A DNA stretch of 58,978 bases, the filler included, from Ferroacidibacillus organovorans (lineage in GTDB: Bacteria; Bacillota; Bacilli; Alicyclobacillales; SLC66): assembly GCF_001642725.1 (NCBI RefSeq). It is 7 parts of 7 records of this genome, joined end to end, with 100 filler letters (N's around TTAATTAATTAA, not from the genome) between each part and the next. Parts side by side here need not be neighbours in the genome. Positions count along the whole stretch, not along the records: positions 8,869 to 17,613 come from NZ_LSUQ01000083.1; 6 more parts are not named here. One strand, given 5' to 3'. Within the stretch, counting starts at the first letter, position 1; every line of letters begins with the position of its first letter. The position numbers and the translations under genes were made by a program. This document shows, piece after piece, positions 6,134 to 51,583 of this stretch. The notes beneath the pieces are model-generated. The model searched no databases, had not been told where the DNA came from, and saw only the letters and a program-made list of their open reading frames with translations.

Positions 6134-7555
6134 TCAACGGCGCGTCTCAAACCATGTAAAGACCTCCCGCGCGTGGTCACCGAGGCTTGTAAGCGACGCG
6201 TGAAACAGTTCGTGCAGATCACGCTGCCCGCGATGCTCAACCCGCGCTGTCGCCGGTGTGCCGTAATACGGATGAGGCATCACCCGCGGCGCGTCGGTGC
6301 GCGGTGTGGAGCGCGTGAGCACCTGCGCGAGATCAACCGCTTGCCGGTCGCGCTCTGTGAGGTAGGATAGGCCAAATCGCTCTGTCGCCGTATGCAGAAT
6401 CGCCGTATGGTCGGCGGGCACTTCTTTTCCTGATGCGTCACGCGGTCGAAAGACGGTCCCTTGTTCAATGTAGGGAGAAATCAACACAGTACATACGCGG
6501 ACACCCAAGCGGTCAAAGCGAAAATTGCACTGGCCAAGCGGTTTGTTCAAATCAGGCGGAACAGCGACAGGCGGTGGCACGTGATCATAGCATCCCCCGT
6601 GCTCGTCATACGTTACGATCAGCAGTGTTCGCTCAAAGCACGGACTCACGCGAAGCGCCTCATACACCTGAAACAAAAGCCACTCTCCGGGAAGCATGGA
6701 CGACGGTGGGTGTTGGTCGTTTGCGTCCGGCCCGAGAAACTGCGGCTCAAGATACGCGTAACTCGGAAGTGTGCCACGCGCGCAATCCTCATAGAACTGA
6801 TCGAGCGGTGAAAAATGGGTCCACGCATAAGGGAACAGTGCAGGCAAGTGAATCATAAGCGTCAGTGGAAGGATGTCTTTGACGCTGTAGTAGACGCGCC
6901 ACGAAAGGTCTTCTCGCTTGGCGTCGGAGATTCGGTTAAAGAGCGTGGGTGCCGCGTTTTTCACCCACTCGGTATATGGCTCGTTGTTCACGAGCCCACG
7001 CGATGTCCCAGCGTGAAGAAACGCGCGGTTCGCCCATGTTTGGCTTGGCACGGAGGAAAAATAGCGATCACACACAGCGTAAGAGCGCGCGAGGCTGGAT
7101 AATACGGGAAGCGATTCTGGCGTATAACACTGCATGATCTGCCGCAGTCCTTCTGTTGGAAGAGAACCGCCCGCGAGCGGCTGCCCCACTCCTTCTTGCA
7201 ACACGCGCGCAAAATCCTTGACAAATCCATTCATTTTTATGTCGCGCTGTCCGTGAAACACAGGATACGTTCCATAGATCTGCCGGGCAACGTGCGCGAA
7301 CGTCTCACCTGGATCAACCTGTGGAATGTCGAGCGATGTGGCAGGCCTGACGTATATCGCGTGTGCAGCGCTCGACCCAACCCCTGGAAGCGGATTGCTC
7401 AGCGTCTTGTCAGCCACCCCGTCAAACGGTTGTCCGCGCGCCGGGCGATCACTCTCCTTCGCGGAGTGAGGATCATACAGATACCCCGCCACTTGATCAA
7501 ACGAACGATTTTCGAGCATAAGCACTACGATGTGGTCGAATCGATGCGTTTTCAT
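6134..7555 (-). CDS. Phosphoesterase family protein (phospholipase C / AcpA type)
   Basis: HIVVLMLENRSFD, TWANR, DQHPP and TYDEHGGCYDHVPPP motifs. Confidence 0.9.
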   Translation of the reverse strand: MKTHRFDHIVVLMLENRSFDQVAGYLYDPHSAKESDRPARGQPFDGVADKTLSNPLPGVGSSAAHAIYVRPATSLDIPQVDPGETFAHVARQIYGTYPVFHGQRDIKMNGFVKDFARVLQEGVGQPLAGGSLPTEGLRQIMQCYTPESLPVLSSLARSYAVCDRYFSSVPSQTWANRAFLHAGTSRGLVNNEPYTEWVKNAAPTLFNRISDAKREDLSWRVYYSVKDILPLTLMIHLPALFPYAWTHFSPLDQFYEDCARGTLPSYAYLEPQFLGPDANDQHPPSSMLPGEWLLFQVYEALRVSPCFERTLLIVTYDEHGGCYDHVPPPVAVPPDLNKPLGQCNFRFDRLGVRVCTVLISPYIEQGTVFRPRDASGKEVPADHTAILHTATERFGLSYLTERDRQAVDLAQVLTRSTPRTDAPRVMPHPYYGTPATARVEHRGQRDLHELFHASLTSLGDHAREVFTWFETRR

Positions 7556-7624
7556 GCTGCATCCTATGACGGAGGGACACGATTGGTTTCTGCACGCCGC
7601 GCACTCCCGCGCCGCACAGATCTT

Positions 7625-8768
7625 TTAGCGTTGGCGCAATCGATACTTTTGCAGCTTGCCGGTCGACGTCCGCGGGAGCGCATCGACAAACGCGTACTCT
7701 TTTGGCGTTTTAAAGTGCGCCAACCGTTCGCGACACCACACGTTTAGTTCATCAGACGAAACCGTAACCCCCGACTTCAACACGACAAACGCTTTCGGTA
7801 CTTCTCCCCACTTCTCGTGAGGCACTGCGACGACACCCGCCTCAAGAATTGCCGGATGTTGATAGAGCACACCCTCCACCTCAACGGAAGATACGTTCTC
7901 ACCACCCGAGATGATCACATCCTTTGCCCGATCGACAATTTGAATGTAGCCATTCGGATGCACCACCGCGAGATCACCTGTGTAAAAGTAGCCGCCGCGA
8001 ATCACCTTCGCCGTTTCTTCCGGCTGTTTGTAGTAGCCCTCCATGACGGTGTTTCCGCGCGCGGCAATCTCGCCAATCTCGATGCCATCCCACGCCACAT
8101 CGACGCCGTCACTGCGAAACACGCGCGTCTCACCGCTAAACACCATCTCCACACCCTGGCGCGCCTTGACATTCGCCGTCTCTTCCTCTGAAAGCTTGGC
8201 AAACGCGTCGACCCATTCACAGTACGTGATCAGGGGTGTCGTCTCCGTCAAGCCATACACGTGCGTGATGTCCATTTTCAGCAGCCGCTCTGCCTGCTCG
8301 ATCACTGCAGCGGGTGGAGGCGATCCAGCCGTCGCGAAACGAATTGTCTTTGTCAGCTTGCGCTCTGGCAGTGACGCCGCGTTTAGCAGCATATTGATCA
8401 CCGTTGGCGCGCCAAACGCGACGGTGATTCCCAGGTTTTCAAAAAGTGAGAGGATGACGTCTGGATCGACGCGGCGCAGACAGACGTGCGTTGCCCCTAC
8501 GGCTGTGAACACCCAAACACTGCCCCAGCCATTGACGTGAAACATGGGCAGCGTATGGAGGTACACATCGTCGTGATGGACACGCATGTGAAAAAGCACA
8601 TCCGCCGCGTTGATGTAATTGTTGCGATGTGTAAGCACGACACCTTTCGGGCGCGATGTTGTCCCGCTTGTATAATTGATCGTAAGCGGCAGATCCTCAT
8701 CCAGTTCACACGCAAACGGAGTCGCATCTGCGTTTGCGAGGAGCAACTCATAAGGTACCCATCCCTGG
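7625..8768 (-). CDS. Acyl-CoA synthetase / AMP-binding enzyme, 5'-truncated by contig end
   Basis: YTSGTTSRPKGV, YGLTE, TGDLA, DRAKDVIISGGEN and PRTSTGK motifs. Confidence 0.92.
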
Positions 8769-8868
8769 NNNNNNNNNNNNNNNNNNNNNNNNNNNNNNNN
8801 NNNNNNNNNNNNTTAATTAATTAANNNNNNNNNNNNNNNNNNNNNNNNNNNNNNNNNNNNNNNNNNNN
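8769..8868. other. Artificial contig spacer
   Basis: N-run, TTAATTAATTAA (stops in all six frames), N-run; 100 nt. Confidence 0.99.
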
Positions 8869-8988
8869 AGCGAGGGACTCATGGTTGGATTCCGAGCGGC
8901 TTGGGGTTATGCGGCAGGGACGCTTGGGCTCACACTGCTTTTGTTCGCATGGCTCGCTATAAAAGTCCGTTTGAGACAGAGGGTATGA
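8869..8988 (+). CDS. C-terminal fragment of a membrane protein (possibly MFS), 5'-truncated
   Basis: Manual translation: SEGLMVGFRAAWGYAAGTLGLTLLLFAWLAIKVRLRQRV*. Confidence 0.5.
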   Translation, partial: SEGLMVGFRAAWGYAAGTLGLTLLLFAWLAIKVRLRQRV

Positions 8989-9454
8989 AGACTTAAACAT
9001 CATTTCTTCTCGTACACAGAAAGGAAGTTGTCAGCCCTTTTCCCGCGGACACAGCATGATATTAAGTCAAGAAAGTAGACACGATAAACAGAGACGATTG
9101 ATCATTTTAAATCCTTGGTTAGGTCGATCCACCTTCTGTGGTTTCGACACAGAATTCATTTTCTAAAATATCCTGATCCAGATGTCCAGGACAAGAACAT
9201 CCCTTAACATTCTCACCACATTCTTCGTTAGAAAGTCCGCGCTTCGTACATCCTTTCATCGTGATGCGGTGATACATAGCCAATCGACGAATGGATTTTC
9301 TAACGATTGTAAAAAACTTCGATTGAGTGCCCGGAGTGGACATGGATCCAGAGTTTGGCCCTATCGGAATCTCTCGGACGGTGGTGAGGGAATGTTATTT
9401 GAATGGGTGAGGCAGTCGTGGCTCGGATTATCGATCTATCACGGAACTGCAATT

Positions 9455-9895
9455 ATGAAGCCACTATGGATTGGGATCGCGTTTATCGCATTTGCCCTTG
9501 TGGCGGCGCGGTTTGACATTCGGGAACGGCGAATTCCAAACGTCCTGAACCTGTTTGGACTGGGGCTCTTTTTGGCGTTGCACTTCGGTGTTGGTTCGGG
9601 AGAAGAGGCGTTTTTCGCCTTCGTTTGCACCGGACTGCTGCTTCTCGTTCCGACGCTTCTTGGACTCTGGGGCCAGGGGAACTGGAAGATGGCCATGGTT
9701 TGCGGGCAGCACTCGGTGTGCTGCCCACGCTGTTCATATGGTGACTGGCGTTGCTCTTTGCCAAGGTCTATAGTACGGCGGTCAAAAAATACGTGGTTCG
9801 ATGGCTACCAACCGACACCAAGAAGGGGACTGCCCATAGTGGTTTTTGTCCTCGTGTCGACGATCCTCTTCTGTGCAGTGATGTCTTTATTCTGA
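9455..9895 (+). pseudogene. A24 prepilin peptidase (TadV/CpaA-like) pseudogene
   Basis: DIRERRIPN motif present; the GxGDxK motif reads GQGNWK. Frameshifts near 9705 and 9827, with TGA at 9742-9744 in the hydrophobic frame. Confidence 0.75.
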
Positions 9896-9927
9896 AAGTT
9901 AATAGCGCCCTGAAAGGGGGCCTCTTC

Positions 9928-10763
9928 ATTCGATTGCATGATGCGTCCAACTGATATCTGACCCTCCAGGCGCAGGAGGGGTATTCGCCCTATACAGTAA
10001 AGGCGTACCGGGTGCAGCATCACCAGTTGATAAAAGACATCGGGGACACGATCACGTCGGAACAACTGCGGGAACATCTGCAGCAGCACATGCATTTGAA
10101 AGCGAGCAGTCTCGGGTATAATGTACGGGCCATCATGAGTTTGTTCAATTCAAGTGGTTGGTGGAAGAGGATCTCCTCGTGCGCAATCCGACCATGAAGT
10201 TGAAGGAACCGAAGCTTGGAAAACGTGTGCCAAAGGCACTCACCATCGATGAACTAGAAATGTTGCGGGATTCTTGCACCAGTGTCTTGGAGCATGCGCT
10301 CGTGGAATTTTTCTTCGCCACGGGATGTCGGGTGGGGGATATTCACAAACTCGACCGCAGTGCAATTGATTGGCAGCGTGGCTGTGTGAATGTGATAGGG
10401 AAAGGAAACAAAGAACGAGAGGTGTACTTCGGCTCGAAGGCCCGCATATGGCTTCAACGGTATTTGAATCATCGTGGTGATAAGGATGCGGCGCTGTTTG
10501 TAACCGAGAGGAAACCGCACCGGATATCGATTCATCAGATTGAGTATATTTTCAATCGGATCGCGAATCGATCCGACTTGCAAACCAAGATCAGCCCCCA
10601 CAAGATTCGCCATACCCTCGCAACCGTATTGCTCAATCAGGGCGCACCCCTCGTTGCCGTGCAGTCTATTTTGGGCCATGAGAAACCGGAGACCACGCAG
10701 TTGTACGCATCCCTCAGTGGCACCGTACGCCAACAAGCATATCAGCGATATTTCGTGCAGTGA
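9928..10763 (+). pseudogene. Tyrosine recombinase / integrase (XerD-like fold), disrupted in the N-terminal domain
   Basis: Catalytic residues intact: TGCR, GKGNKER, HKIRH, LGH, TTQLY. The N-terminal part (QEGYSPYTVKAY...) has ATT after the RBS, TGA at 9952-9954 and a TTCAA duplication at 10144-10153. Confidence 0.88.
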
Positions 10764-10770
10764 TGAATGT

Positions 10771-10799
10771 CTGCAAAACCATTCGTCGCCGTGTATACT
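10771..10799 (+). promoter_or_regulatory. Putative sigma-A promoter pointing into the gene array
   Basis: CTGCAA-N17-TATACT directly after the integrase stop. Confidence 0.4.
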
Positions 10800-10831
10800 G
10801 AGGGAAACGATGCTAGGAGAGCGCGGGAAAA

Positions 10832-10935
10832 CTGGCATTGAGCGATCCGCACACGGGGACTTTTATGCAGATATATTGCATGATCATGCGAACCGAGCGA
10901 GTCGGCTTACGCCGATTTCGGGCAGTTTAGTGCAG
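10832..10935. repeat. Array hairpin site 1 (integrase-proximal)
   Basis: GCATTGAGC/GTTTAGTGC outer arms; centred core TGCATGATCATGCG at 10877-10890. Confidence 0.65.
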
Positions 10936-11025
10936 CACGGACAACGAAAATTTGGAGCGCAAACAGGATATATAAATAAAACGACGAATTCAATTAATGG
11001 AATACGCAATGTCAGGAGGGTTTAT

Positions 11026-11136
11026 GTGCAAGTACCTTCGATTTTTGATGCGGTTGTTATCCTAGGGGGAAGTCTGCCCTTATTCGGGTATTCAATTGCA
11101 TACAAAGATCAGGGAATCGTACAGCGTTCTGACTAG
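11026..11136 (+). CDS. 36-aa small ORF (leader peptide or truncated gene)
   Basis: AGGAGG RBS and GTG start; MQVPSIFDAVVILGGSLPLFGYSIAYKDQGIVQRSD. Confidence 0.4.
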   Translation: MQVPSIFDAVVILGGSLPLFGYSIAYKDQGIVQRSD

Positions 11137-11170
11137 CTACGCCAGTTAAGGCGTGTTGAAATCGGAATAC

Positions 11171-11203
11171 AAAGCACCTGATCACGTGGTCAGGTGCTTT
11201 TTT
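11171..11203 (+). terminator. Intrinsic terminator / attenuator 34 nt before the MFS start
   Basis: AAAGCACCTGAT-loop-GTCAGGTGCTTT followed by a T-run. Confidence 0.75.
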
Positions 11204-11236
11204 GCGTTGAAAAATGACCGAAGGGAAGATCATTCA

Positions 11237-12478
11237 ATGAAATTCAATACAACAATCTTGAAAAACAGAAACTTCTTATCTTACTGGAGCGGTGGACTAA
11301 TTTCAGAACTTGGAGATGCCATGTTTTTGCTGGCACTCAATTGGATGGTGGTTGAGAAAACAGGTTCGGGATTAATTTTAGGAACCATCATGGCGTGTAT
11401 TTCACTGCCTCAAATTTTACTCGTCACGATTGGTGGTGTGGTTGCAGATCGCTTGAATCCGAAATGGGTCATGATTGCATCGGATGCTGTACGCGGACTG
11501 ATAATGGCTTTTCTGCTGGTGATGAGCTTTCGCGGTGTGGTGCCGATTTGGACGTTGTTTGTGATGGCAATTGTGTATGGCTGCATGGATGCGGCATTTT
11601 TCCCTGCACAATCGGCATTTCAACAAAGACTTGTTTCTTCAGAGCAATACACGCAGTCCTTCGGACTCTTGATGATTGGTTTTCAGGCGGCAGCGATTGC
11701 AGGACCTGTTATTGGCGGTGCGTTGATTTCCAAATGGAGTTATCGACTTGTCATTGCAGCCAACGGACTTTCATTTATTTGTTCGATTCTGCTTCTGCTC
11801 TTGGTTAAACCGATTCCCATCGATTCCGATGACGAAGAAAAAGACAAATTATCATTTTCATCCGACATCCAAGTCGGAATTCGATATGTACTGAAGAATC
11901 ATCTGATCTTAACGACATCCTTAAGTGCGTTCTTGGTCAATGCGTGCGTGCAAGCCACATTCATTGCAATGCCGTTCTTGGCAAAACAAGCTCACCTGGG
12001 TGCACAAGGATTTGGCTTGATGAATATGGGCATTGGAATCGGTGGTGCTCTCGCAGCTCTCTTTTTTGCTTTCATACGGATTCAAAAGCCAACACCAAAA
12101 ATGACCTTGCTTGCTTGTTTCGTCGAAGGGTTTGCGTTTCTTGGACTCGTCGTTGCAAGGGACCTATGGTTGCTTATTGGTACGATGCTCGTCATTGGCA
12201 TTATGGAAGCTGTCGTGAACACAATTGCTCCAAGTGTAAATCAAAAAATCATTCCGCCACAACTGATTGGGCGAGTCATTAGTTTTATGATTGTTTTAAT
12301 GTCGGGATCGGAACCGCTGGCACGTGCATTTTCAGGATGGATGATTCAATGGTCAGGAGTAACGGTTTTGTTAATTTGTACGGGCATTCTTGAAATTGTC
12401 GTAGCTGTGATCGGCTATTTCATGCCTGTTGTCCGAAATTATGGCTTGGAACAGCCCCCGATCGAATCCTATGATTGA
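11237..12478 (+). CDS. MFS transporter, DHA3 / Mef-like efflux type
   Basis: About 12 TM segments; LKNRNF...SELGD, GGVVADRLNPKWVMIASD and GRV motifs. Start reassigned to MKFNTT. Confidence 0.88.
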   Translation: MKFNTTILKNRNFLSYWSGGLISELGDAMFLLALNWMVVEKTGSGLILGTIMACISLPQILLVTIGGVVADRLNPKWVMIASDAVRGLIMAFLLVMSFRGVVPIWTLFVMAIVYGCMDAAFFPAQSAFQQRLVSSEQYTQSFGLLMIGFQAAAIAGPVIGGALISKWSYRLVIAANGLSFICSILLLLLVKPIPIDSDDEEKDKLSFSSDIQVGIRYVLKNHLILTTSLSAFLVNACVQATFIAMPFLAKQAHLGAQGFGLMNMGIGIGGALAALFFAFIRIQKPTPKMTLLACFVEGFAFLGLVVARDLWLLIGTMLVIGIMEAVVNTIAPSVNQKIIPPQLIGRVISFMIVLMSGSEPLARAFSGWMIQWSGVTVLLICTGILEIVVAVIGYFMPVVRNYGLEQPPIESYD

Positions 12479-12496
12479 TGAAAATCACAGCACAGG

Positions 12497-12522
12497 GGAC
12501 ATCCTTTGGGGTGTCCTGTTTT
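12497..12522 (+). terminator. Intrinsic terminator of the MFS gene
   Basis: GGACATCC-TTTG-GGGTGTCC-TGTTTT. Confidence 0.7.
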
Positions 12523-12562
12523 ACTTTCTATGGTTTATATCCTCAAATGTCGAGTAGCAAAT

Positions 12563-12670
12563 CTATTGCAGTATGGTGCGAAACTGCAGTAGCCGTCTCC
12601 GGTTGACGGGTGTATGATTATACAGGCACGCATGGAGACGCTTACTGCCGTTTCGAGCAATGTTCAATAG
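12563..12670. repeat. Array hairpin site 2
   Basis: CTATTG..CGAAAC.GCAGTA..CGTCTCC / GGAGACG..TACTGC.GTTTCG..CAATAG arms; core TGTATGATTATACA at 12611-12624. Confidence 0.85.
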
Positions 12671-12721
12671 TGATTCACTGAACGTAATCGGTATATTTAG
12701 TTGAATTCGGAGGGGAAATGA

Positions 12722-13468
12722 ATGTCTACAAAGGTAGCTATAATTACAGACATCCATGGCAACAGCCCCGCATTACAGGCTGTGTTGAAGGACATCGACA
12801 GTCAGTCTGACATTGAGCACATCTACTGCTTGGGAGATATGGTGGCAATCGGACCTGACACTGATGAGGTCTTGGTTGCATTGTTCGAGCGAGAAGATGT
12901 ATCCATGATCACCGGAAACCATGAAGATGCGGTGTTGGCAATTTTTCGAGGTCAAGAACCAGCGTCCCGTGACGAGGAGCGAGCACACCACGAGTGGATT
13001 GTCGAGAACACCGATGAAGCCTTACTTCGAAGCCTGTTGGACTTGCCCCGTTCATTAAGAATTGAACACGAAGAGAAGAGCCTGTTATTGGTCCACTACC
13101 ACTTAGATGCCGCTGACAACTTCCTGCCAATTGACCGAGACCCTTCAGCGGATGAGCTGGATACAATCTACAATGGAGACAAGGCTGACATAGTGTGCTT
13201 TGGACATCATCATCCCGTTCACTTCTTCAAGTCTGCCACAAGAACATATCTGAATCCTGGCTCATTAGGGTGTTGTGACCGCCCTGTAGCTCGATACGCC
13301 ATTCTGGACATCGACTCGCAGGATATTGCAGTTGAAATGAAAGAAATCCCATACGATAATCGCCAGTTTCTTTTGTCGTATGAGCAATTAGGGGTACCTG
13401 CAAGGGATTTCCTGCTCATGGCGTTCCACGGCAATCAGCACATGGGTATCCATGAAGAAGAGTCATAA
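12722..13468 (+). CDS. Metallophosphoesterase (calcineurin-like, YfcE family)
   Basis: DIHGN, LGD, GNHE, GHHH and NPGS motifs. Confidence 0.92.
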   Translation: MSTKVAIITDIHGNSPALQAVLKDIDSQSDIEHIYCLGDMVAIGPDTDEVLVALFEREDVSMITGNHEDAVLAIFRGQEPASRDEERAHHEWIVENTDEALLRSLLDLPRSLRIEHEEKSLLLVHYHLDAADNFLPIDRDPSADELDTIYNGDKADIVCFGHHHPVHFFKSATRTYLNPGSLGCCDRPVARYAILDIDSQDIAVEMKEIPYDNRQFLLSYEQLGVPARDFLLMAFHGNQHMGIHEEES

Positions 13469-17380: not shown

Positions 17381-17613
17381 GTGAACTCCAACAACGGCGG
17401 CCATAAATTCACCAACCGCCTCATCCACGAGAAATCCCCATACCTGCTTCAGCACGCCCATAACCCGGTCGACTGGTACCCTTGGTGCGACGAGGCGTTC
17501 CGCATCGCTCGCAGGTTCAATCGTCCCATTCTTTTGTCCATCGGCTACTCGTAGCCCTGCGGGGCTACGAGTGGCAATATACGGTAATGGAGTAATATAT
17601 GGACCTGTCACTG
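17381..17613 (+). CDS. yyaL: YyaL / DUF255 thioredoxin-domain protein, 5' part, interrupted by a 51-nt coding gap (17552-17602) and cut by the contig end
   Basis: Missing from the ORF track. GTG start gives [57 protein letters not shown], then TAG. ACC TGT CAC TG (TCHW) resumes in frame at 17603. Confidence 0.88.
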
Positions 17614-17713
17614 NNNNNNNNNNNNNNNNNNNNNNNNNNNNNNNNNNNNNNNNNNNNTTAATTAATTAANNNNNNNNNNNNNNNNNNNNNNNNNNNNNNN
17701 NNNNNNNNNNNNN
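17614..17713. other. Artificial contig spacer
   Basis: N-TTAATTAATTAA-N. Confidence 0.99.
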
Positions 17714-18506
17714 GGCCGTGCTCTGCCTCAATCAACACATCATGCGCAACCAAGCGCGGGTCGACCGATCCGTCCGTCAGGATGATCGCCTCACTCGGTC
17801 CTGCCGGAACACCCGGATCGATCGCACCCATCACAAGGCGTTTGGCGGCAGTTACGTACGGATTTCCAGGACCTAGAACCTTTGCGCACTTGGGCACCGT
17901 TTCTGTACCATAGGCGACTGCCGCAATCGCTTGGGCGCCGCCCACCTTGTAAATCTCGCGAATACCGAGCAAGTCGGCCGCAAAGAGAATCGCAGGATCC
18001 ACCTTTCCCACCTCATTCGGCGGTGTCAAAACGATGATCCGCGCTACACCTGCGACAACTGCCGGCGTGCCAAGCATCAAGAGAACCGATGGGAAGCTCC
18101 CTTTCCCGCGCGGGACATAGAGCGCCACGTCCGGGATGGCGGTTACCTTTTCACCTGCCATGATCCCCTGATCCACTTCCATCATCCACATTGGTTCGGG
18201 CATTTGCGCCTCGTGAAAGCGCCGTATGTTTCTCGCCGCATAGCGCAGCGTTTCTGCAGTGCGTTCGTCGACCTGCGCAGTGGCCTCCCGAATTTCTTCT
18301 TCCGTAACGCGCATGCTTCCCGGATTTAGTCGCACACCGTCAAATGCCTCCGTGTAGGCATAAAGCGCTGTATCCCCCTCTCGCCTCACGGTGTCACAAA
18401 TCTCGCGCGCCACTTCCATCTGTGCAGAAATGTCGCTTCCAGCGCGGCGCAAGATGCGATCTTGTTCGGATTGCGTCAATTCACTCATGCGGTAGCGTGC
18501 GATCAC
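17714..18506 (-). CDS. hisD: Histidinol dehydrogenase family protein, 3'-truncated
   Basis: YVPRGKGSFPS, GGAQAIAA, GPGNPYV, AGPSE and EAEH motifs; GTG start after the GAAGGAG RBS. Confidence 0.8.
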
Positions 18507-18594
18507 GAAACTCTCTCCTTCAATTCTGTTTGTTTCCACTTCCATATTCACTTTATTACTCTACTATACTAAAGTGAACCGAAAACGCCAACCC

Positions 18595-26443: not shown

Positions 26444-26543
26444 NNNNNNNNNNNNNNNNNNNNNNNNNNNNNNNNNNNNNNNNNNNNTTAATTAATTAAN
26501 NNNNNNNNNNNNNNNNNNNNNNNNNNNNNNNNNNNNNNNNNNN
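26444..26543. other. Artificial contig spacer
   Basis: N-TTAATTAATTAA-N. Confidence 0.99.
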
Positions 26544-35136: not shown

Positions 35137-35236
35137 NNNNNNNNNNNNNNNNNNNNNNNNNNNNNNNNNNNNNNNNNNNNTTAATTAATTAANNNNNNNN
35201 NNNNNNNNNNNNNNNNNNNNNNNNNNNNNNNNNNNN
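35137..35236. other. Artificial contig spacer
   Basis: N-TTAATTAATTAA-N. Confidence 0.99.
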
Positions 35237-35812
35237 CGCAAGGGATGTGCCGGAGACCGGCGATGCACCGGTTGTCCCAGAGAGAGGGAATGATGATGCG
35301 CCCATGGATGGGAGTGTGGCGTTGGATTGTGCAACACCACTAGAGAATCCGGATACACCCTCTATGGCGGCTGCCAGGCTTGAGAGATTGGCGGTCGAGC
35401 CGGATTTTGCAGCGCTTGTTAGCAGGAGGCTGAGCAGTTGGCTTGACGACCCACCGAGCAGACTTCCGCTGAACGTGCCACTCACACCGCCGAGCAGGGA
35501 GGTAAGGGACGATGTGCCACTCACACCGCCGAGCAGGGAGGTAAGGGACGATGTGCCACTCACACCGCCGAGCAGAGATGAAAGCGACGAGCCGCTTGTC
35601 ACGCTGGTTCCTGACAAACTGCCAGATTGAGAGAGCGCGGTCAAGCCGGAGAGTTCCGTATTTGCAATCGTCTGCAAAAGCGCAGATTGAAACGGTGTCA
35701 ATCCGCTTGTCGGAAGTGTTTGGCGAGCGGTGTTGCCGCGTGTTTTTGTGCTCACTTCGCTTGGCGTAGCTGCGTTTGCCACGGAAGACGGGCGCATTGG
35801 ATCAAGGTTCAT
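35237..35812 (-). CDS. Ser/Gly/Leu-rich low-complexity protein, 3'-truncated
   Basis: Open frame overlapping the TetR stop; contains a 13-aa tandem repeat. Confidence 0.65.
35475..35575. repeat. 39-bp coding tandem repeat, about 2.6 copies
   Basis: Unit GTGCCACTCACACCGCCGAGCAGGGAGGTAAGGGACGAT (minus-strand SSLTSLLGGVSGT). Confidence 0.95.
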
Positions 35813-36482
35813 CAGAAAAATCATACCTTTCTTTAGGCGCGGAGATTGACGTTGGTTGCAATGATTTTACCAAAAGATCGCAGAGCGGGTCTACGAGATC
35901 AGAGAGTGGACGGTCTTCATTTTCGAGCAATCTCATCAAAAGGACTTCGTGGATCGCTCCGAGCCAAGCATATGCCGTCAACGTACAGTCGATCGGTTCA
36001 ATCGATCCGTCTTCCACTGCATGGGTTAGGTGCAAAGCAATAAATCGCGCGATCGCGCGATGTGCCGCGTAGACTTGTCGATCAAATGTTTTCCCGAGTC
36101 CGGATGCTTCTACAAACAATAGACGGGTCGCTTTTTCGTGGCGAGTCAGTGTAGACAGAACGACCGTAAGCGCCGCGCGAATTTTTTCCACTGCGCCGTG
36201 TCGAGTGTCAATGGCCTGGTTTGCGCCAGCGAGAAGGCGATCGATCAACGTGTCAAGCAGCACTTCGAAAATGGCCTTCTTGGATGGAAAATGAAAATAA
36301 AATGCGCCTTTTGACGTGGATGATTCACGCGTGATATCGTCCACGAGCGTGTCGTTATATCCTTTTTCAGAAAAGACATCCATGGCGGCTTGAAGAATTT
36401 TATTCCTCGTCTCTTGGCGGCCGCGCTCTTTTTTTTCGCTACCTTCCGTTTTCCCATTCGTCGCTGGTTCATCTAATTCCAC
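35802..36482 (-). CDS. TetR/AcrR regulator
   Basis: ILQAAMDVFSEKGY...SKGAFYFHFPSK HTH. Confidence 0.92.
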   Translation of the reverse strand: MELDEPATNGKTEGSEKKERGRQETRNKILQAAMDVFSEKGYNDTLVDDITRESSTSKGAFYFHFPSKKAIFEVLLDTLIDRLLAGANQAIDTRHGAVEKIRAALTVVLSTLTRHEKATRLLFVEASGLGKTFDRQVYAAHRAIARFIALHLTHAVEDGSIEPIDCTLTAYAWLGAIHEVLLMRLLENEDRPLSDLVDPLCDLLVKSLQPTSISAPKERYDFSDEP

Positions 36483-38614
36483 GGAATGTAGTACACCTCC
36501 ACCTCATCGCCCTGCGCAATCGGAGAAGTGAACTCGGCTTCTTCTCCGTTAATTTTCATGATCAGCCGTTCACGGCCGTGCACGCCTGCCCGAAGCGTTT
36601 CGGATAGGAGGAGTACCATTGTGCTCATCGTGGGCCCTGTTTCGAGACGGCCTTCCGTAGTGATGACGTCGCCTTGTTCAAGCGTGTCCTTCAGCTCACA
36701 CGGTGCGCCGTTTCTTAGGATTCGCTCGATCATCGGAATTTCTCGCTTTATCCCGTTTACAAGCACTGTCATGCATTCCCCCGCGCGATATAAAGCGGCT
36801 TTTAGCGCGTCAATGACGGTAGGTGGTGCGGTTGCGGCGCCTTTTAGCGAGAAGGAGAGTCCCTCCACAATCGGCTCATCCCAGGAAAAAAAAGGTTCAA
36901 TGAGCATGGTTTGCCACTGTAATTCAAGGGGTTTTTCATCGACGACAACAGCGATTCGCTCGACGACGTTGCGACCGATAATCGACTCGATCCACTCGCC
37001 AATCGTTGGCCATTGGGTCACGATGACGTCGCGGTCGCTGAGTTTACTGTGTAGTGTGGCAACACGATCATTCTTTAAGATTCGCGGCGACACGCGTTGG
37101 ACGGTTCCATTCACCGTTATCGAGAGTGGTTTTACTGTCAACACGGACGCAATCGTTCCGATTGCGTCCTTTCCGTCTTCGCCGACGGCGACGCTAATCG
37201 TGTCACCTGCGTCAAGTGTGTCATCAAGCAGACACGGGAGTCCATTTTTTTGCACGACACCCTGCGTTCCAGTCGTCCCAGGAATGGAGCGAATCTCTTG
37301 ATTCACTTCAACGACAAGCGCATTCCCTGTGCGCGCCCGCAAGCGTCGCAGATCGAGACCACACTCGGAAAGTGCGTCACCTACGGTCATGAGCCGCATG
37401 GCAAAGAGGCGGTGGCTGCGGCCGTCAAAGCGCACGGTGACGGGTGTAATCTCCGAGTTTTCAGCGGTGAGCGCGATACCGATGGGCGTGACGGATTCCG
37501 GCCCAAATAACGTTTCCACACAGCCTTTGGCCTGATGAATTGAGACGCGGTCGCGCACGCGGATGCGATCGAGTGGAAGTCCGAGTTTGTCGGATAGCTC
37601 TTTTTCGAGAAAAGGTGTTTTTGCGCCGCCGCCGATCAACATGAGTGCGTCAGGCGCTTTCTCGTTGAGGCGAACGATTTCATCGGCGATTTTTTGCGCA
37701 AGATCAGATACGGCAGGGCGCAGCGTCGCCAACAACTTTTTACAGGAGAGGTGACGCACTTGACCAAGGACGTCCTCCACGTCGATGGAATCCATATCGA
37801 GGGAGCGCTTGACGCGCTCTGCGACAGGAAAATCGAGCAAATACGCTTGTTCGAGTGCTTCGGTAATCTCGTCGCCGGCGACGGGGACCATTCCGAAAGA
37901 GCGCACAGAGCCGTCGCCTGTCAGCGCGATGTCGGACGTTCCAGCGCCGATGTCAATCAAAGCGATGTTCAAGTTTCTCATGCTTGAAGGCACCAGCGCG
38001 TAGAGCGCCGCGATCGGTTCTAACGTAAGGCCGCGCATCATGAGCCCGGCATGCGTCAACGCCGCATCGAGGGATTCAATAACGGCGCGCGGCAAAAACG
38101 TCGCAATGAGAGAGACATTCGCCTCGTGTCCGCTTTGTCCAACGAGGCTTGCCATCCGTTCGCCATCAAGCGTGTAATCGCGAACACTGTATCCTACACA
38201 GTGAAGGAGTCCAGACGGTTTGCGATTGGCGCGCGCCTCAAACCCCCATTTCGATTTGGCCGATTCGATGGCGACCATGTGGAGCTGGTGGATATCTTCT
38301 TCTGTACACGGCACAAGCAGCGGAATCGTCGCGTTGGCGGTCACCGTTTGCAGTGAGCGCCCCGCGGCCGCAACGGAGACTGCTTTGAGTGACACGCCAG
38401 AGGCATTTTCGAGCGCGCGCGTAACCTCTTGAATCACCGCAGAAACGGAGCGAACATCGTGAATCTGTCCGTCGCGCATCGCGCGGTCACGATGTTCCTG
38501 TGTCTCTACCGCGTGGATCTCAATCCCTTGCGCGGATTTAGAATACAGAAGCCCGGTCACGCCACGCGTCCCAATATCGAGCGCGTACGCCCACTCGCTC
38601 ATCTTGTTCACCAC
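36473..38614 (-). CDS. FtsA/PilM-like actin-fold ATPase with long C-terminal extension
   Basis: ALDIGTR, LEPIAA, DIGAGTSD, AERVKR and IGGG motifs; about 330 extra residues. Confidence 0.85.
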   Translation of the reverse strand: MVNKMSEWAYALDIGTRGVTGLLYSKSAQGIEIHAVETQEHRDRAMRDGQIHDVRSVSAVIQEVTRALENASGVSLKAVSVAAAGRSLQTVTANATIPLLVPCTEEDIHQLHMVAIESAKSKWGFEARANRKPSGLLHCVGYSVRDYTLDGERMASLVGQSGHEANVSLIATFLPRAVIESLDAALTHAGLMMRGLTLEPIAALYALVPSSMRNLNIALIDIGAGTSDIALTGDGSVRSFGMVPVAGDEITEALEQAYLLDFPVAERVKRSLDMDSIDVEDVLGQVRHLSCKKLLATLRPAVSDLAQKIADEIVRLNEKAPDALMLIGGGAKTPFLEKELSDKLGLPLDRIRVRDRVSIHQAKGCVETLFGPESVTPIGIALTAENSEITPVTVRFDGRSHRLFAMRLMTVGDALSECGLDLRRLRARTGNALVVEVNQEIRSIPGTTGTQGVVQKNGLPCLLDDTLDAGDTISVAVGEDGKDAIGTIASVLTVKPLSITVNGTVQRVSPRILKNDRVATLHSKLSDRDVIVTQWPTIGEWIESIIGRNVVERIAVVVDEKPLELQWQTMLIEPFFSWDEPIVEGLSFSLKGAATAPPTVIDALKAALYRAGECMTVLVNGIKREIPMIERILRNGAPCELKDTLEQGDVITTEGRLETGPTMSTMVLLLSETLRAGVHGRERLIMKINGEEAEFTSPIAQGDEVEVYYIPWN

Positions 38615-38663
38615 CTTCCGTCATCTGACGTCACGTCGCGATTGAAATTTATTGGGTTTCATT

Positions 38664-39890
38664 TTATGAGATTGTAAAATGATAGCCGAGTCTACTCAAT
38701 CGGTCGGACAGATCTTTGATTTGCGATAAATCCCGCGTTTCTACAGAGAGTTGCACTTCAACGTGTCCCAGTGTCATGGCGGATCCGAGCCGATGATGCT
38801 CAATCGAAACGATGTTGACACCCGTTTCGGCCACTGCGCGCAACAGCACCATGAGCGAGCCGGGGCGATCGGAAATCGTGGTGATATACCGCGCAAAGCG
38901 TCCCGCGGCACTCAAACCGTGTTCAATAATGCGTGATAAAAAACTGACGTCCACATTGCCGCCAGAGAGAATGACCGCGGTTTTGTCGGTGGTTTTTGGA
39001 AGTTTGTCTGTGATGACAGCCGCGACGGCAGCCGCGCTGGCACCTTCGCTAACCACTTTGCAACGTTCCAATAAGACGACCATGGCGCGCGCAATCTCCT
39101 CATCATCGACACAGACAACATCATCCACGTAGTTCCTGATCACTTCATAGGTGCGCACGCCTGGTCGCTTGACGGCGATGCCATCGGCGATCGTTGATAC
39201 GCGATCAAGGGTTGTGACGCATCCGGCTGCGAGCGAAGCGGTGACACAGGCAGCTCCGCTTGCCTCGACGCCGTAAATTTTGATCGAAGGTTTCAATGCT
39301 TTCAGCGCAATCGCGATTCCGGAGATTAGCCCGCCACCGCCGATCGCTGCGACGACGGATTCCAAATCCGGTTGTTGCTCAAGAATTTCGAGTGCAACGG
39401 TGCCCTGTCCCGCGATGATATCGTCATCGTCAAACGCCGGAATGAACGTCATTCCCGTTTTTTTCTGCAGTGCGCAGGCGTGATCGAGCGCTGTGTCAAA
39501 ATCTGCGCCATGCAGGGTGACGGTTGCGCCATAGCTGCGCGTCGCCTCTACTTTTGAAAGGGGGGCCCCGCTTGGCATGACGATGTGGCAGGGAATGTTC
39601 AGCGCGTTCGCCGCAAACGCGACGCCTTGCGCGTGATTTCCAGCAGACGCGGCGATCACGCCGACTTCTTGGGCTTCTTTTGATAAACGTTGAATCTTGT
39701 TATAGGCTCCACGAATTTTAAATGATCCCGTACGCTGTAAGTTTTCAAGTTTGAGATAAACCGGTCGATGAGCGAGTTCGCTGAGGCGATGTGAGAAGTC
39801 GAGCGGTGTCCGTTCACAGATTCCCGTGAGAAGTTTTTGCGCCTGTTTTATGTCTTCAATCGTGATGGCCAAATCAATCACCCCGCCCAA
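38664..39890 (-). CDS. ilvA: Threonine ammonia-lyase with C-terminal ACT domain
   Basis: ENLQRTGSFKIRGA, SAGNHAQG, GGGGL, SGGN and DRPG motifs; exact start uncertain. Confidence 0.9.
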   Translation of the reverse strand: MGGVIDLAITIEDIKQAQKLLTGICERTPLDFSHRLSELAHRPVYLKLENLQRTGSFKIRGAYNKIQRLSKEAQEVGVIAASAGNHAQGVAFAANALNIPCHIVMPSGAPLSKVEATRSYGATVTLHGADFDTALDHACALQKKTGMTFIPAFDDDDIIAGQGTVALEILEQQPDLESVVAAIGGGGLISGIAIALKALKPSIKIYGVEASGAACVTASLAAGCVTTLDRVSTIADGIAVKRPGVRTYEVIRNYVDDVVCVDDEEIARAMVVLLERCKVVSEGASAAAVAAVITDKLPKTTDKTAVILSGGNVDVSFLSRIIEHGLSAAGRFARYITTISDRPGSLMVLLRAVAETGVNIVSIEHHRLGSAMTLGHVEVQLSVETRDLSQIKDLSDRLSRLGYHFTIS

Positions 39891-39979
39891 ATCCTGAAAA
39901 AAACAGTATTTTTTCTTTTCGATCCTGTGAGTCTATGGTACATTGTATCAAAAACATGAGCCGGAAGGGAGGTTTTGCG

Positions 39980-41095
39980 ATGCACACGGAGAAGGATCGG
40001 GTCGTAGATCGACTCTATCCGCGCGTTCGCGAGACGCTTCATCAAATACGTCCCTATGTTCCGGGGAGACCGGCTGCCGATGTGATGAGGGAGTTTGGCC
40101 TCGCAGACGTGGTTAAGCTTGCCTCAAACGAAAATCCATTTGGTACGTCGCCGCGGGCGAGAGAAGCCGTTTTTGAAGCGGCGCGAGAGATGCATCGTTA
40201 CCCGGATGGCGCAACAACATCACTGCGCAAAGCGATTGCGGCGCACCTCGCTCTGAATTCAGATCAGGTGCTCGTCAGCAATGGCTCAGACGAGATGATC
40301 AAAATGGTTTCAGAGACGTTTTTACAACCTGGTGACGAGGTGGTGGCGCCTTTTCCTTCGTTTGCACAGTATGGGTTTGGCGCAAACGTGATGGGCGCAA
40401 AAATGGTGCACGCTCCTTTGACTCCTACCTTTTTTTACGACGTGGATGCGCTGCTTGCGTGCATCACGGAGCGAACTAAGATTGTGTATCTATGTTCGCC
40501 AAACAATCCGACGGGCACGTGGCTTACGCACGCGCAGGCGGAATCCTACATGGCGCGCGTTCCTGATCATGTGCTGACTGTCTTTGACGAGGCGTACGTC
40601 GAGTATGTCGACGCAATAGATCCGCTCGATACACTGAGGTGGGTTCGCGAAGGGCGGGCGGTGCTCTCGTTTCGCACCTTTTCAAAAATGTATGGCCTTG
40701 CAGGGCTGCGTCTCGGTTATGCGCTGGGGAATCCGGGCATCCTCTCTTTTATTGAAAAGGTGCGTGAGCCGTTCAATGCGAATGCGCTGGCACAGTGCGC
40801 GGCAGAGGCTGCACTTTTGGATACGGCGTTTGTGGAGATGGTGCGTCGTAAAACGAAGGAAGGCAGACGTCAACTCGAAGCGGGTGTGCAAGCATTGGGC
40901 TATCATACCGTGCCATCCCAAGGAAATTTTTCATTAGTGTATACAGGTAACGGGCGTGAGACATTTGAACGGTTGCAGCGTTTAGGGGTCATTGTGCGGG
41001 CTGGGTTCCCCGGTCTCGACGCGTATATTCGGGTATCGATTGGCACATTTGAAGAAAACGAGCGTTTTCTTCAAGCGCTGGCAACGCTGTCTTAA
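39980..41095 (+). CDS. hisC: Histidinol-phosphate aminotransferase
   Basis: KLASNENP, NNPTG, DEAY and RTFSKMYGLAGLRLGY motifs. Confidence 0.93.
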   Translation: MHTEKDRVVDRLYPRVRETLHQIRPYVPGRPAADVMREFGLADVVKLASNENPFGTSPRAREAVFEAAREMHRYPDGATTSLRKAIAAHLALNSDQVLVSNGSDEMIKMVSETFLQPGDEVVAPFPSFAQYGFGANVMGAKMVHAPLTPTFFYDVDALLACITERTKIVYLCSPNNPTGTWLTHAQAESYMARVPDHVLTVFDEAYVEYVDAIDPLDTLRWVREGRAVLSFRTFSKMYGLAGLRLGYALGNPGILSFIEKVREPFNANALAQCAAEAALLDTAFVEMVRRKTKEGRRQLEAGVQALGYHTVPSQGNFSLVYTGNGRETFERLQRLGVIVRAGFPGLDAYIRVSIGTFEENERFLQALATLS

Positions 41096-41125
41096 GTAAA
41101 GAGAAATGTGGAGCTAAGGGAGAAG

Positions 41126-42220
41126 ATGGAGATGGCAGAAGACCGATTGAAAGATTTGCGTTCAGAATTGGACGTCATCAACCTTGAATTGTTGCAACTC
41201 TTGAGCAAGCGCGCAGATGTCGTACAGCGCATTGGTCACTTGAAACAGACGCGCGGTGTAGCGATTTTTGACCCGGAGCGCGAAAAACAGCAGTTGGATC
41301 GACTGGTTGAGGAAAATCCAGGTCCGTTCCCAGACAGCACGATTCGTCACTTGTTTAAGCAAATTTTTCAGGCTTCGCAAGGTCTTCAGGAAGAACAGCG
41401 CAAATTGCTCGTCAGTCGTCAACGCAATCACGAGGATACGGTGGTCACCGTCAGAGGGATCAAGATCGGCGGCGGCGTACCGATCGTCGTTGGCGGTCCG
41501 TGCTCTGTTGAAACGGATGACCAAATGGAGAAGATTGGTCAGGAGATGCAGGTTCAGGGTATTCAACTCGTGCGCGGAGGCGCCTTTAAACCGCGCACAT
41601 CTCCGTATGATTTTCAAGGATTGGGCGAAAAAGGACTTCGCATGTTGCGCGACACGGCGCGGAAGTACGGATTTGCCACCGTATCTGAGATTGTCAACCC
41701 GGCCGATGTGGAAATGGCCATCCAGTATGTGGACATGATTCAGGTGGGCGCTCGAAACATGCAAAATTTTGAGCTTCTTAAAGCGGTCGGGAATACGCGG
41801 GTGCCTGTGCTCCTAAAACGTGGATTATCAGCGACCATTGAAGAGCTCATCTATGCGGCCGAATACATCGCTGCCCGCGGCAACGAGCAAATCGTTCTTT
41901 GTGAGCGCGGAATTCGCACCTATGAGAAAGCGACCCGCAATACGCTTGACATCTCTGCCGTTCCAATTTTGAAACAGGAGACGCACCTTCCTGTGCTGGT
42001 GGACGTCACCCATTCCACAGGTCGAAAAGATATCATGCTTCCTGTCGCAAAAGCGGCGCTTGCCGTTGGAGCGGATGGCATCATGGTTGAAGTTCACCCA
42101 GAACCGCAAGTTGCATTGTCTGACGCCAAACAGCAATTGAACTTCGCGGAGTTTGATCATTTTATGGAATCGCTTCGCAGCTCTGGCATGATTCCGGCAC
42201 TCGTTACCACGCACGGCTAA
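41126..42220 (+). CDS. aroA: Bifunctional chorismate mutase / DAHP synthase
   Basis: N-terminal chorismate mutase domain; GPCSVE, KPRTSPY and GARNMQN motifs. Confidence 0.93.
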   Translation: MEMAEDRLKDLRSELDVINLELLQLLSKRADVVQRIGHLKQTRGVAIFDPEREKQQLDRLVEENPGPFPDSTIRHLFKQIFQASQGLQEEQRKLLVSRQRNHEDTVVTVRGIKIGGGVPIVVGGPCSVETDDQMEKIGQEMQVQGIQLVRGGAFKPRTSPYDFQGLGEKGLRMLRDTARKYGFATVSEIVNPADVEMAIQYVDMIQVGARNMQNFELLKAVGNTRVPVLLKRGLSATIEELIYAAEYIAARGNEQIVLCERGIRTYEKATRNTLDISAVPILKQETHLPVLVDVTHSTGRKDIMLPVAKAALAVGADGIMVEVHPEPQVALSDAKQQLNFAEFDHFMESLRSSGMIPALVTTHG

Positions 42221-42294
42221 TGAAGCGCTTTAGTCGCGCCTGTGAATTTTAAGACATAGATCCATGCTGATCTGACGTTAAGATGCGATAAGGA

Positions 42295-42323
42295 AAGACG
42301 TCTCCTACGGAGGCGTTTTTTTC
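42295..42323 (+). terminator. Intrinsic terminator after aroA
   Basis: AGACGTCTCC-TAC-GGAGGCGTTT followed by a T-run. Confidence 0.75.
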
Positions 42324-42377
42324 TTTACATTTTCTTTACGTTATAGCGATGTTTGCTTTACATAGGCTTGCTAGAAT
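42324..42377 (+). promoter_or_regulatory. PhoP (Pho) boxes and extended -10 of pstS
   Basis: TTTACA/TTTACG/TTTACA at 42324, 42335 and 42357 (11-bp phase); TGCTAGAAT at 42369-42377. Confidence 0.8.
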
Positions 42378-42418
42378 CATCCTATAGGCAACGGAAAGAA
42401 CCATCAGGAGGGTTTCCA

Positions 42419-43462: not shown

Positions 43463-43479
43463 ATCAGGCAGTATCTGCT

Positions 43480-43579
43480 NNNNNNNNNNNNNNNNNNNNN
43501 NNNNNNNNNNNNNNNNNNNNNNNTTAATTAATTAANNNNNNNNNNNNNNNNNNNNNNNNNNNNNNNNNNNNNNNNNNNN
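43480..43579. other. Artificial contig spacer
   Basis: N-TTAATTAATTAA-N. Confidence 0.99.
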
Positions 43580-51483: not shown

Positions 51484-51583
51484 NNNNNNNNNNNNNNNNN
51501 NNNNNNNNNNNNNNNNNNNNNNNNNNNTTAATTAATTAANNNNNNNNNNNNNNNNNNNNNNNNNNNNNNNNNNNNNNNNNNNN
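51484..51583. other. Artificial contig spacer
   Basis: N-TTAATTAATTAA-N. Confidence 0.99.

Follow-up and report, generated by a model that had tools for sequence, protein, structure and literature searches.

A stop-and-hairpin gap in yyaL of Bacilli as a candidate gene 60-like translational bypass at a putative serine-recombinase site

How can a protein motif be kept letter for letter when the gene that encodes it is broken, at that very motif, by stop codons and a stretch of non-coding sequence? The question is raised by a fragment of yyaL at positions 17381 to 17613 of a 58,978-nucleotide (nt) stretch of Ferroacidibacillus organovorans DNA, here called the window. YyaL is a DUF255 thioredoxin-domain protein of roughly 690 residues, and the gap in its gene falls between the Ser of SIGYS and the Thr of TCHWC. 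A first-pass annotation of the fragment proposed a ribosomal hop of the kind known from phage T4 gene 60, here in a cellular gene. The best explanation, drawn from comparative evidence only, is that the gap is skipped by a gene 60-like translational bypass, to which a probability of about 0.7 can be given. The proposal of a T4-like hop in cellular yyaL is thus strongly backed by comparison among genomes, but the copy that was flagged is not itself a working gene.

The flagged site and the working gene

On re-reading of the sequence, the open reading frame, the bounds of the gap, both stops, the 14-bp stem, the spacing of GGAG and the resumed ACC-TGT-CAC-TG were all found to be as first described. 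The features that the argument needs are the following, where SD-like stands for Shine-Dalgarno-like.

17381..17551, plus strand: yyaL 5' cassette with a GTG start and 57 codons ending in SIGYS, an orphan copy; it matches PF03190 positions 1-47 with E 4.8e-20
17549..17551, plus strand: proposed take-off codon UCG (Ser), the same codon as in most intact junctions
17552..17554, plus strand: UAG stop right behind the take-off codon, within the 5' arm of the hairpin, as read from the sequence
17544..17575, plus strand: proposed take-off hairpin, found by folding, with a 14-bp stem (17544-17557 paired with 17562-17575) and a UGCG loop
17552..17602, plus strand: 51-nt non-coding gap, with in-frame TAG at 17552 and TAA at 17585, as read from the sequence
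17589..17592, plus strand: GGAG, an SD-like motif read from the sequence, 7 nt 5' of the last gap codon and also part of a recombinase arm
17600..17602, plus strand: last gap codon UGG, the proposed landing codon, which is non-cognate and fits UCG at positions 1 and 3 only
17603..17613, plus strand: ACCTGTCACTG, that is ACC TGT CAC TG, where coding resumes as T-C-H; crossover is proposed at the terminal TG dinucleotide

Against PF03190 (DUF255, the YyaL family; cut-off 27) the fragment reaches 72.6 bits, with a match confined to profile positions 1-47. In the hairpin, the 5' arm consists of the final coding bases plus UAG-CCC, and the predicted fold has an energy of -33.1 kcal/mol (z = -4.68), a stability reached by 0 of 200 shuffled sequences.

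Base 17613 is the final base of contig C83, which is why just 11 nt are seen 3' of the gap. Contig C69 starts with the final 38 nt of C83, and a whole-genome search for the terminal 30-mer of C83 returned no occurrence besides the start of C69, which reads on ACC TGT CAC TGA and not yyaL. Because C83 continues into C69 without a yyaL body, the flagged copy is a displaced (orphan) yyaL 5' cassette and not a working gene. A whole-genome profile search gave eight PF03190 matches, of which seven are N-terminal (profile positions 1-48), each with a TAG. The remaining one (positions 48-162, 166.9 bits) is found only on contig C54, directly behind one of the N-terminal pieces. There the sequence past the junction runs GTG TCA CGT CAT GG and on, giving TCHWCHVM and a long open frame. 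The working yyaL of this genome is this C54 copy, whose gap measures 54 nt and not 51; the 51-nt type of the window is also present in the intact genes L019, L021 and L087 of other genomes.

The seven cassettes have a common layout (SIGYS, TAG in a hairpin, gap, ACCTGTCACTG), and their sequences differ. Unrelated sequence comes right behind ACCTGTCACTG on contigs C8, C59 and C68 and where C69 and C56 begin, and every copy, orphan or intact, diverges immediately past the TG of TGT CAC TG. An assembly artefact, such as a fold-back at a contig end, was ruled out: the same structure occurs in the interior of long contigs and in single-contig genomes.

Conservation of the gap and of its signals

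Two samples of genomes were compared. The order-level sample comprised 41 related genomes from two families of one order, 35 of them with a PF03190 match. In 29 of these 35 the N- and C-terminal parts of the match lie apart at profile position ~48, and all 29 junctions were read; one genome (G018) has an uninterrupted gene, and five are ambiguous, with contig ends or N-terminal pieces only. The class-level sample held 121 genomes, 53 with a match. Here 36 genes were uninterrupted, and seven genomes from six further families were interrupted at the same codon, their junctions also being read; the other ten matches comprise the present genome (G000), six that belong to the same order and had been counted before, and three ambiguous ones. 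A scan of a species-level genome collection for the hairpin motif returned 97 stretches, among which those in yyaL belong to Alicyclobacillus, Sulfoacidibacillus and unnamed Bacillota metagenome-assembled genomes. The remaining stretches were set aside as chance matches in GC-rich genomes, with no SIGYS upstream. By this comparison, the order to which Alicyclobacillus belongs has a discontinuous yyaL, and so, in a patchy manner, do other Bacilli.

For the analysis of the junctions, 40 unique intact ones were collected by a script whose pattern demands a stop behind the Ser codon, and that of genome G056 was read separately, giving 41. Across the gap the protein text is always exactly SIGYS-TCHWCHVM, as in the uninterrupted gene of G018, where the Ser codon is AGC. 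The gaps themselves vary: among the 40, lengths of 18, 20, 30, 33, 36, 38, 40, 43, 46, 47, 49, 51, 52, 54, 55, 56, 57, 59 and 61 nt occur, and the gap of G056 has 21 nt and two stops. Sixteen of the 40 are not multiples of three, eleven are in frame with at least two stops, and thirteen are in frame with a single UAG.

The ratio of non-synonymous to synonymous substitution rates (dN/dS) had a median of 0.062 over the 45 codons 5' of the gap (251 pairs) and of 0.147 over the 120 codons 3' of it (168 pairs); pairs entered the comparison only if their dS could be computed and exceeded 0.1, and dS approaches saturation. Downstream of the gap, every one of the 29 interrupted order-level genomes keeps an open frame of 640-870 codons. 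Judged by these ratios and frames, both halves of yyaL are under purifying selection and the gene is not a pseudogene. The survey proposed with the original observation, namely for a gap at the same codon with a stop in a hairpin and purifying selection on both halves, thus found the gap in dozens of genomes, a conserved and covarying stop-hairpin, and purifying selection on the two parts. Neither a gap unique to this assembly nor a decayed downstream half, two of the findings named at the outset as fatal to the idea, was encountered; the gap is conserved and the downstream frames are open.

A stop (UAG, UGA or UAA) stands right behind the Ser codon in 41 of 41 intact junctions, in 40 of which it was selected for by the script. 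The Pfam search, which does not select for stops, found nearly all interrupted genes to have a stop inside their N-terminal match or at its end, and the UAG (T13, A14, G15) is invariant in an alignment of 43 sequences (A1). The hairpin around it is equally recurrent. In 43 long-gap junctions (29 distinct rows) 95.6% of the cells of the 14-bp stem are paired, against 31-50% when the partner columns are slid. Covariation is seen between the third base of the Tyr codon and the gap base that it pairs with (U-A 19, C-G 10, unpaired 0). The stem alignment also contains 26 G·U cells, which on the opposite strand would be C·A; because these cells pair only in the sense strand, the constraint on the hairpin acts on sense-strand RNA. 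In genome G137 the stop is UGA, within a compensated stem (UGACC/GGUCA) closed by a UUCG loop. The 33-nt gap type has a short 5-bp GC stem with a UUCG or CUCG loop, for example GCCCC-UUCG-GGGGC, and no comparable hairpin was evident in the 18-, 20- and 21-nt gaps when their junctions were read. A transcription terminator was considered for the hairpin and ruled out, no U tract being present behind the stem. The peptide encoded upstream of the gap is ordinary conserved YyaL sequence.

The take-off codon is UCG in 34 and UCC in six of the 40 scripted junctions, and UCC again in G056. Paired with the last codon of the gap, the 41 junctions are distributed as follows.

Take-off UCG, last gap codon UCG: 21 junctions
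Take-off UCC, last gap codon UCC: 2 junctions
Take-off UCC, last gap codon UCU: 2 junctions
Take-off UCG, last gap codon CCG: 7 junctions
Take-off UCG, last gap codon UGG: 5 junctions
Take-off UCG, last gap codon GCG: 1 junction
Take-off UCC, last gap codon UUU: 2 junctions
Take-off UCC, last gap codon GCU: 1 junction

The two codons are therefore cognate to one tRNA in 25 of the 41 intact junctions. The mismatch of the landing codon, which had been listed as a caveat from the window, is true for the UGG cassette type and is not general. The third base is compatible in 41 of 41, being G in 34 of 34 UCG cases and C or U in 7 of 7 UCC cases. An orphan cassette of genome G149 (L149, at ~base 395) combines the take-off codon AGC with the last gap codon AGU, its UAG lying in a hairpin that has a loop of six bases; it adds a third serine codon class with a matched pair. 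The tRNA-Ser anticodons of the F. organovorans genome are CGA, UGA, GGA and GCU. Finally, 43 of 55 unique junctions have an SD-like core of at least 4 nt at a distance of 5-9 nt (mostly 7) 5' of the last gap codon, compared with 27% of shuffled gaps.

From these signals a sequence of events can be proposed. The ribosome would arrive at the Ser codon (UCG or UCC) with peptidyl-tRNA-Ser in place, and termination at the following stop would be poor because this stop lies buried within the tetraloop hairpin. The ribosome could then take off and slide across the gap until it is captured by the SD-like motif located 5-9 nt before the gap end, where the retained tRNA would re-pair with the last gap codon. 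Decoding would restart at ACN, so that SIGYS-TCHWC is produced with nothing lost.

The layout closely resembles that of T4 gene 60. The T4 sequence quoted in the first-pass annotation agrees with the T4 record, in which take-off occurs at GGA-UAG-CC-UUCG-GG-CUA and a GAG lies 6 nt before the landing GGA. In both systems a take-off codon and the stop behind it belong to the 5' arm of a hairpin with a UNCG-type tetraloop, and the gap begins with the 3' arm; the gap is ~50 nt in both, and an SD-like motif stands 6-7 nt before the landing codon, which matches the take-off codon in T4 and in 25 of the 41 yyaL junctions. In both, too, the gap is tied to a mobile element and is placed in an invariant motif of the host protein. 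The differences are also clear. Gene 60 is a phage gene, whereas yyaL is a cellular chromosomal gene, and tRNA-Ser (UCG, UCC, AGC) would serve in place of the tRNA-Gly or tRNA-Asp of gene 60-type cases. The yyaL gap ranges from 18 to 61 nt, and its likeness to gene 60 is one of layout. The mobile partner is a serine-recombinase island with a half-site in the gap, as opposed to the HNH homing endonuclease MobA of T4, whose cleavage is inhibited by the insert. The host genes, PF03190 and the T4 topoisomerase, are unrelated, and the hairpin cores are alike but too short to show descent.

In the available text of a 2019 review (PMC7026636), long-range bypass is confined to T4 gene 60 and the mitochondria of Magnusiomyces, and the take-off stem-loop and matched codons are given as the key signals. 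The accessible portion of a preprint by Manning and Atkins (10.1101/2022.08.31.505936) adds homologues in Myoviridae topoisomerase genes only; it also describes latitude in P-site re-pairing, the mini-SD mattering more where pairing is weak. As far as the same portions of both sources go (PMC7026636; 10.1101/2022.08.31.505936), the byps of Magnusiomyces capitatus resemble the yyaL gaps in having many natural variants, mobile inserts, a take-off stem-loop, and take-off and landing codons that match, some deviation being tolerated. The byps described there are spread over many mitochondrial genes, whereas yyaL offers one site in one bacterial gene, together with an SD-like motif and a recombinase attachment function.

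Several observations weigh against the bypass reading. The covariation counts overstate the number of independent events, since the sequences are related. The last gap codon is non-cognate in 16 of the 41 junctions, including the UGG type of the window, and re-pairing at these would rest on two of three positions and the SD-like motif. Conservation of that motif has two possible causes, GGAG being part of the recombinase arm as well, and it is no better kept in intact junctions (21 of 25) than in orphans (14 of 20; p = 0.30). Stem mismatches are likewise equal in intact and orphan copies, a comparison in which the 14-bp model misfits the short-stem types that were included. Cognate triplets within the gap are only mildly depleted (13 observed, 22.7 expected). 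An in-frame ATG or GTG able to start the downstream part is present in six of 40 gaps, and for the thirteen gaps in frame with a single UAG, and for those alone, readthrough would be possible. Among the sequencing runs listed as containing the stretch, none is recorded as RNA. RNA contigs from four runs, compared at 80% likeness, covered only a conserved motif (L001 1332-1381) and came from other organisms, and none extended to the gap; this result carries no information on yyaL expression.

Competing accounts of the gap

Five other explanations were weighed, and each of them is in conflict with one or more of the comparative facts given above. The one that survives best is removal of the gap from the mRNA before translation, by an unconventional small intron or by cleavage and ligation. 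Precise excision would restore SIGYS-TCHWC exactly, the conserved hairpin could serve as a processing signal, and the 16 frame-shifting gaps fit as well as they do under bypass. Excision predicts, however, neither a stop adjacent to the Ser codon nor an SD-like motif 5-9 nt before the gap end, and it gives no reason for the last gap codon to track the take-off tRNA across UCG, UCC and AGC. No Rfam family matched at E up to 1 at the three junction loci searched. To our knowledge, there is no bacterial mechanism that excises 18-61 nt from an mRNA, and this account is considered unlikely.

A truly split gene with two products that may or may not reassemble, namely an N-terminal peptide of 57 residues and a C-terminal protein with an initiation of its own, is very unlikely. 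It draws on the SD-like motif of most gaps and on the six of 40 junctions with an in-frame start; in the 38-, 46- and 56-nt types a GGAG-like motif is followed by an in-frame ATG two codons before ACN. The other 34 junctions, including the commonest 54-, 51- and 33-nt types, lack an in-frame ATG, GTG or TTG between the last stop and ACN, and the next ATG comes only past the CxxC motif. The break would moreover fall between a beta strand and the CxxC of the thioredoxin fold, an upstream dN/dS of 0.062 is hard to reconcile with a free 57-residue peptide, and the matched codons would be left unexplained.

Equally improbable is that the insertion simply inactivates yyaL, the apparent selection being a remnant or serving another purpose and the hairpin and arm being purely DNA recombination signals. 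That orphan and intact copies keep the hairpin and the SD-like motif equally is what this account would lead one to expect. It is contradicted by the open frames of 640-870 codons in 29 of 29 interrupted genomes and by the dN/dS of 0.147 downstream and 0.062 upstream, dS being saturated. The 26 G·U cells point to a constraint on sense-strand RNA, and the hairpin lies outside the ~26-bp arm.

Removal of the gap at the DNA level, so that a recombinase excises the intervening DNA and some cells have an uninterrupted yyaL, had been offered in the first-pass annotation alongside ribosome hopping and can be given little credence. In Bacillus, sporulation-specific gene rearrangements restore genes by recombinase excision; in the present case there are large serine recombinases as well as tandem repeats of the site, and contigs that end exactly at the site may reflect heterogeneity of the population. 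A crossover at the TG would swap cassettes, and it cannot remove a gap that lies upstream of it. The 5' copies of the order-level sample are all gapped, and genomes with a single match, among them G022 and G026, each a single contig, have the gapped gene only. A segment of 18-61 bp is also too short for recombinase-mediated excision. Readthrough of UAG, with the gap translated as extra residues, is open to the thirteen junctions in frame with UAG as sole stop, e.g., the 33-nt type, but has a negligible probability overall: like pyrrolysine insertion, it is ruled out by the 16 frame-shifting gaps, is implausible for the eleven with at least two stops, and would place 6-19 residues between the beta strand and the CxxC, disrupting an otherwise invariant motif.

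Putative recombinase islands and a possible reason for the gap

If translational bypass is the best account of how the gap is tolerated, a second part of the question is why the gap is there. The site has the properties of a recombinase target, and the remaining features of the window bear on this or on its composition.

17586..17611, plus strand: left (P) arm of a palindromic attachment-type site, mirrored at 22 of 26 positions across the TG at the C83/C69 junction; the partner arm opens C69
16482..17234, plus strand: gene for a MerR/TipAS-type regulator (Pfam MerR_1 and TipAS) that accompanies this cassette type
8769-8868, 17614-17713 (C83/C84), 26444-26543, 35137-35236, 43480-43579 and 51484-51583, no strand: artificial, non-genomic linkers (N44-TTAATTAATTAA-N44)

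The 26 nt left of the final TG comprise the last 17 nt of the gap and ACCTGTCAC. In orphan junctions with cognate arms (C8, C83/C69, L052 and L060) the left 26 nt mirror the right 26 nt at 20-22 of 26 positions. The median is 15.5 in orphans, the other orphans being mixed-arm, compared with 10 of 26 in intact junctions, where only the inner ~10 positions are mirrored. Judged by this symmetry, the site has the form of a large-serine-recombinase attachment site, a ~50-bp imperfect palindrome with a central dinucleotide, and the hairpin lies outside its ~26-bp arm.

The genome contains 18 matches to PF07508 (Recombinase domain), of which those on C59, C68, C69, C56 and C72 lie near junctions. Full-length recombinases with Resolvase, Recombinase and Zn-ribbon domains are encoded at L142:925-2418 on C72, 0.7 kb upstream of the cassette and pointing away from it, and at L143:5872-7581 on contig C69. 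Degraded or contig-truncated copies are found just downstream of the C59 and C68 junctions, the C59 copy being a pseudogene with two stops. Most of the 18 matches are located away from yyaL junctions, four of them on C22 and three on C41, and for this reason further docking sites probably exist in the genome.

Genes of a defence type make up the cargo, including a STAND NTPase on C54 and Mrr on C69. On C8, at ~7000-13467 (L144), downstream of the orphan junction, a single operon encodes a KAP NTPase, one further protein, a QueC-like protein and a TatD-type DNase, a combination that we take to be reminiscent of the Qat anti-phage system. In genome G033, three orphans and the intact gene form an array on one strand within ~28 kb, with spacings of ~19, 4.9 and 3.4 kb, and the cargo comprises an SNF2 helicase, a methylase, a UvrD-type helicase and a kinase. 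The single-contig genome G038 has an orphan 58 kb 5' of its intact gene. The complete Alicyclobacillus chromosome NZ_CP066784.1 (L065, L090, L056) has two orphans on the strand of its intact gapped gene, at 387 kb and 165 kb on the upstream side of that gene; distances of this size go far beyond those of the other arrays and suggest very large islands or rearrangement between sites. At the site itself, the arrays of spare 5' cassettes cause assemblies to break.

The cassettes are modular and occur in combination with different DNA. The last 210 nt of window sequence up to the end of C83 are 95% identical to the cassette that sits on the gene body in the sister genome G001, and the DNA upstream differs; the gene bodies of G000 and G001 have different cassettes joined to them. 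The MerR/TipAS gene recurs together with its cassette in the G033 array, with 88% identity over 1.2 kb. In two other Bacilli families, genomes G141 (L155) and G151 (L153) have orphans that are free of a gap and whose cut likewise falls at CAY-TG, 1 kb and 6 kb away on the upstream side of an uninterrupted yyaL. Because these gap-free orphans stand beside uninterrupted genes, elements with a seamless replacement 5' end exist. Insertion of an IS200/IS605-type element or a miniature inverted-repeat element (MITE) was considered for the hairpins and dropped, given the palindromic site, the recombinases and the replacement 5' ends.

It can be proposed that large-serine-recombinase islands integrate at the TG of CAY-TG-G within the CxxC codons, and that each island supplies a promoter together with a new yyaL 5' end to replace the old one. 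SIGYS cannot be encoded by the outer part of the recombinase's left half-site, and this part would for this reason be placed in a gap that the ribosome skips. Serial integrations would leave displaced 5' cassettes behind, of which the copy in the window may be one. Tandem integration into a hybrid P/B' site is non-standard behaviour for a serine recombinase and speaks against this scheme. It is rather probable that serine-recombinase defence islands have recruited ribosomal bypassing to be harmless, hiding a half-site in a hopped 18-61-nt gap of a conserved gene.

Elements with large serine recombinases inside coding genes are familiar in Bacillota, examples being SPbeta in spsM and skin in sigK, which split the gene until excision restores it. 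The yyaL islands share with SPbeta and skin a recombinase beside a ~50-bp palindromic site with its central dinucleotide within coding sequence. Unlike these, the yyaL island brings a replacement 5' end, so that the gene would stay expressed, with the half-site apparently hidden in a translational gap, and serial integration builds arrays of spare 5' cassettes.

As to the composition of the window, it is made up of seven separate contigs (C82-C85 and C87-C89) with the N44-TTAATTAATTAA-N44 linkers between them, from an assembly of 98 contigs and 3.03 Mb; features that touch a linker therefore sit at a contig end. The first 200 nt of C87 (window 35237-43479) recur in C51 at 15607, which points to a repeat or a partly duplicated contig. 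The open reading frame at 17714-18551 on the minus strand, cut by the start of C84, presumably encodes a protein resembling histidinol dehydrogenase.

No publication on a bypass in yyaL, or on yyaL as an attachment site, was found in a literature search that did not extend to subscription-only papers and preprint supplements. Automatic annotation can be expected to call a gapped yyaL a split gene or a pseudogene. If the bypass reading is true, yyaL would provide the first case of a bacterial chromosomal gene with programmed long-range bypass, order-wide in occurrence and present in at least six other families of Bacilli. Ordinary bacterial ribosomes would then use bypassing on a cellular gene, and would do so in bacteria that are culturable and non-pathogenic. 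Dozens of natural variants would be at hand, with take-off and landing codons that co-vary across three tRNA-Ser species. They would amount to a natural mutational series for the needs of take-off, sliding and landing, spanning 18-61-nt gaps, three stops and three serine codon classes, with landing matches both strong and weak and hairpins that are long, short or missing altogether. The islands, for their part, would represent a new way for integrative elements to occupy an invariant protein motif and leave the gene undestroyed.

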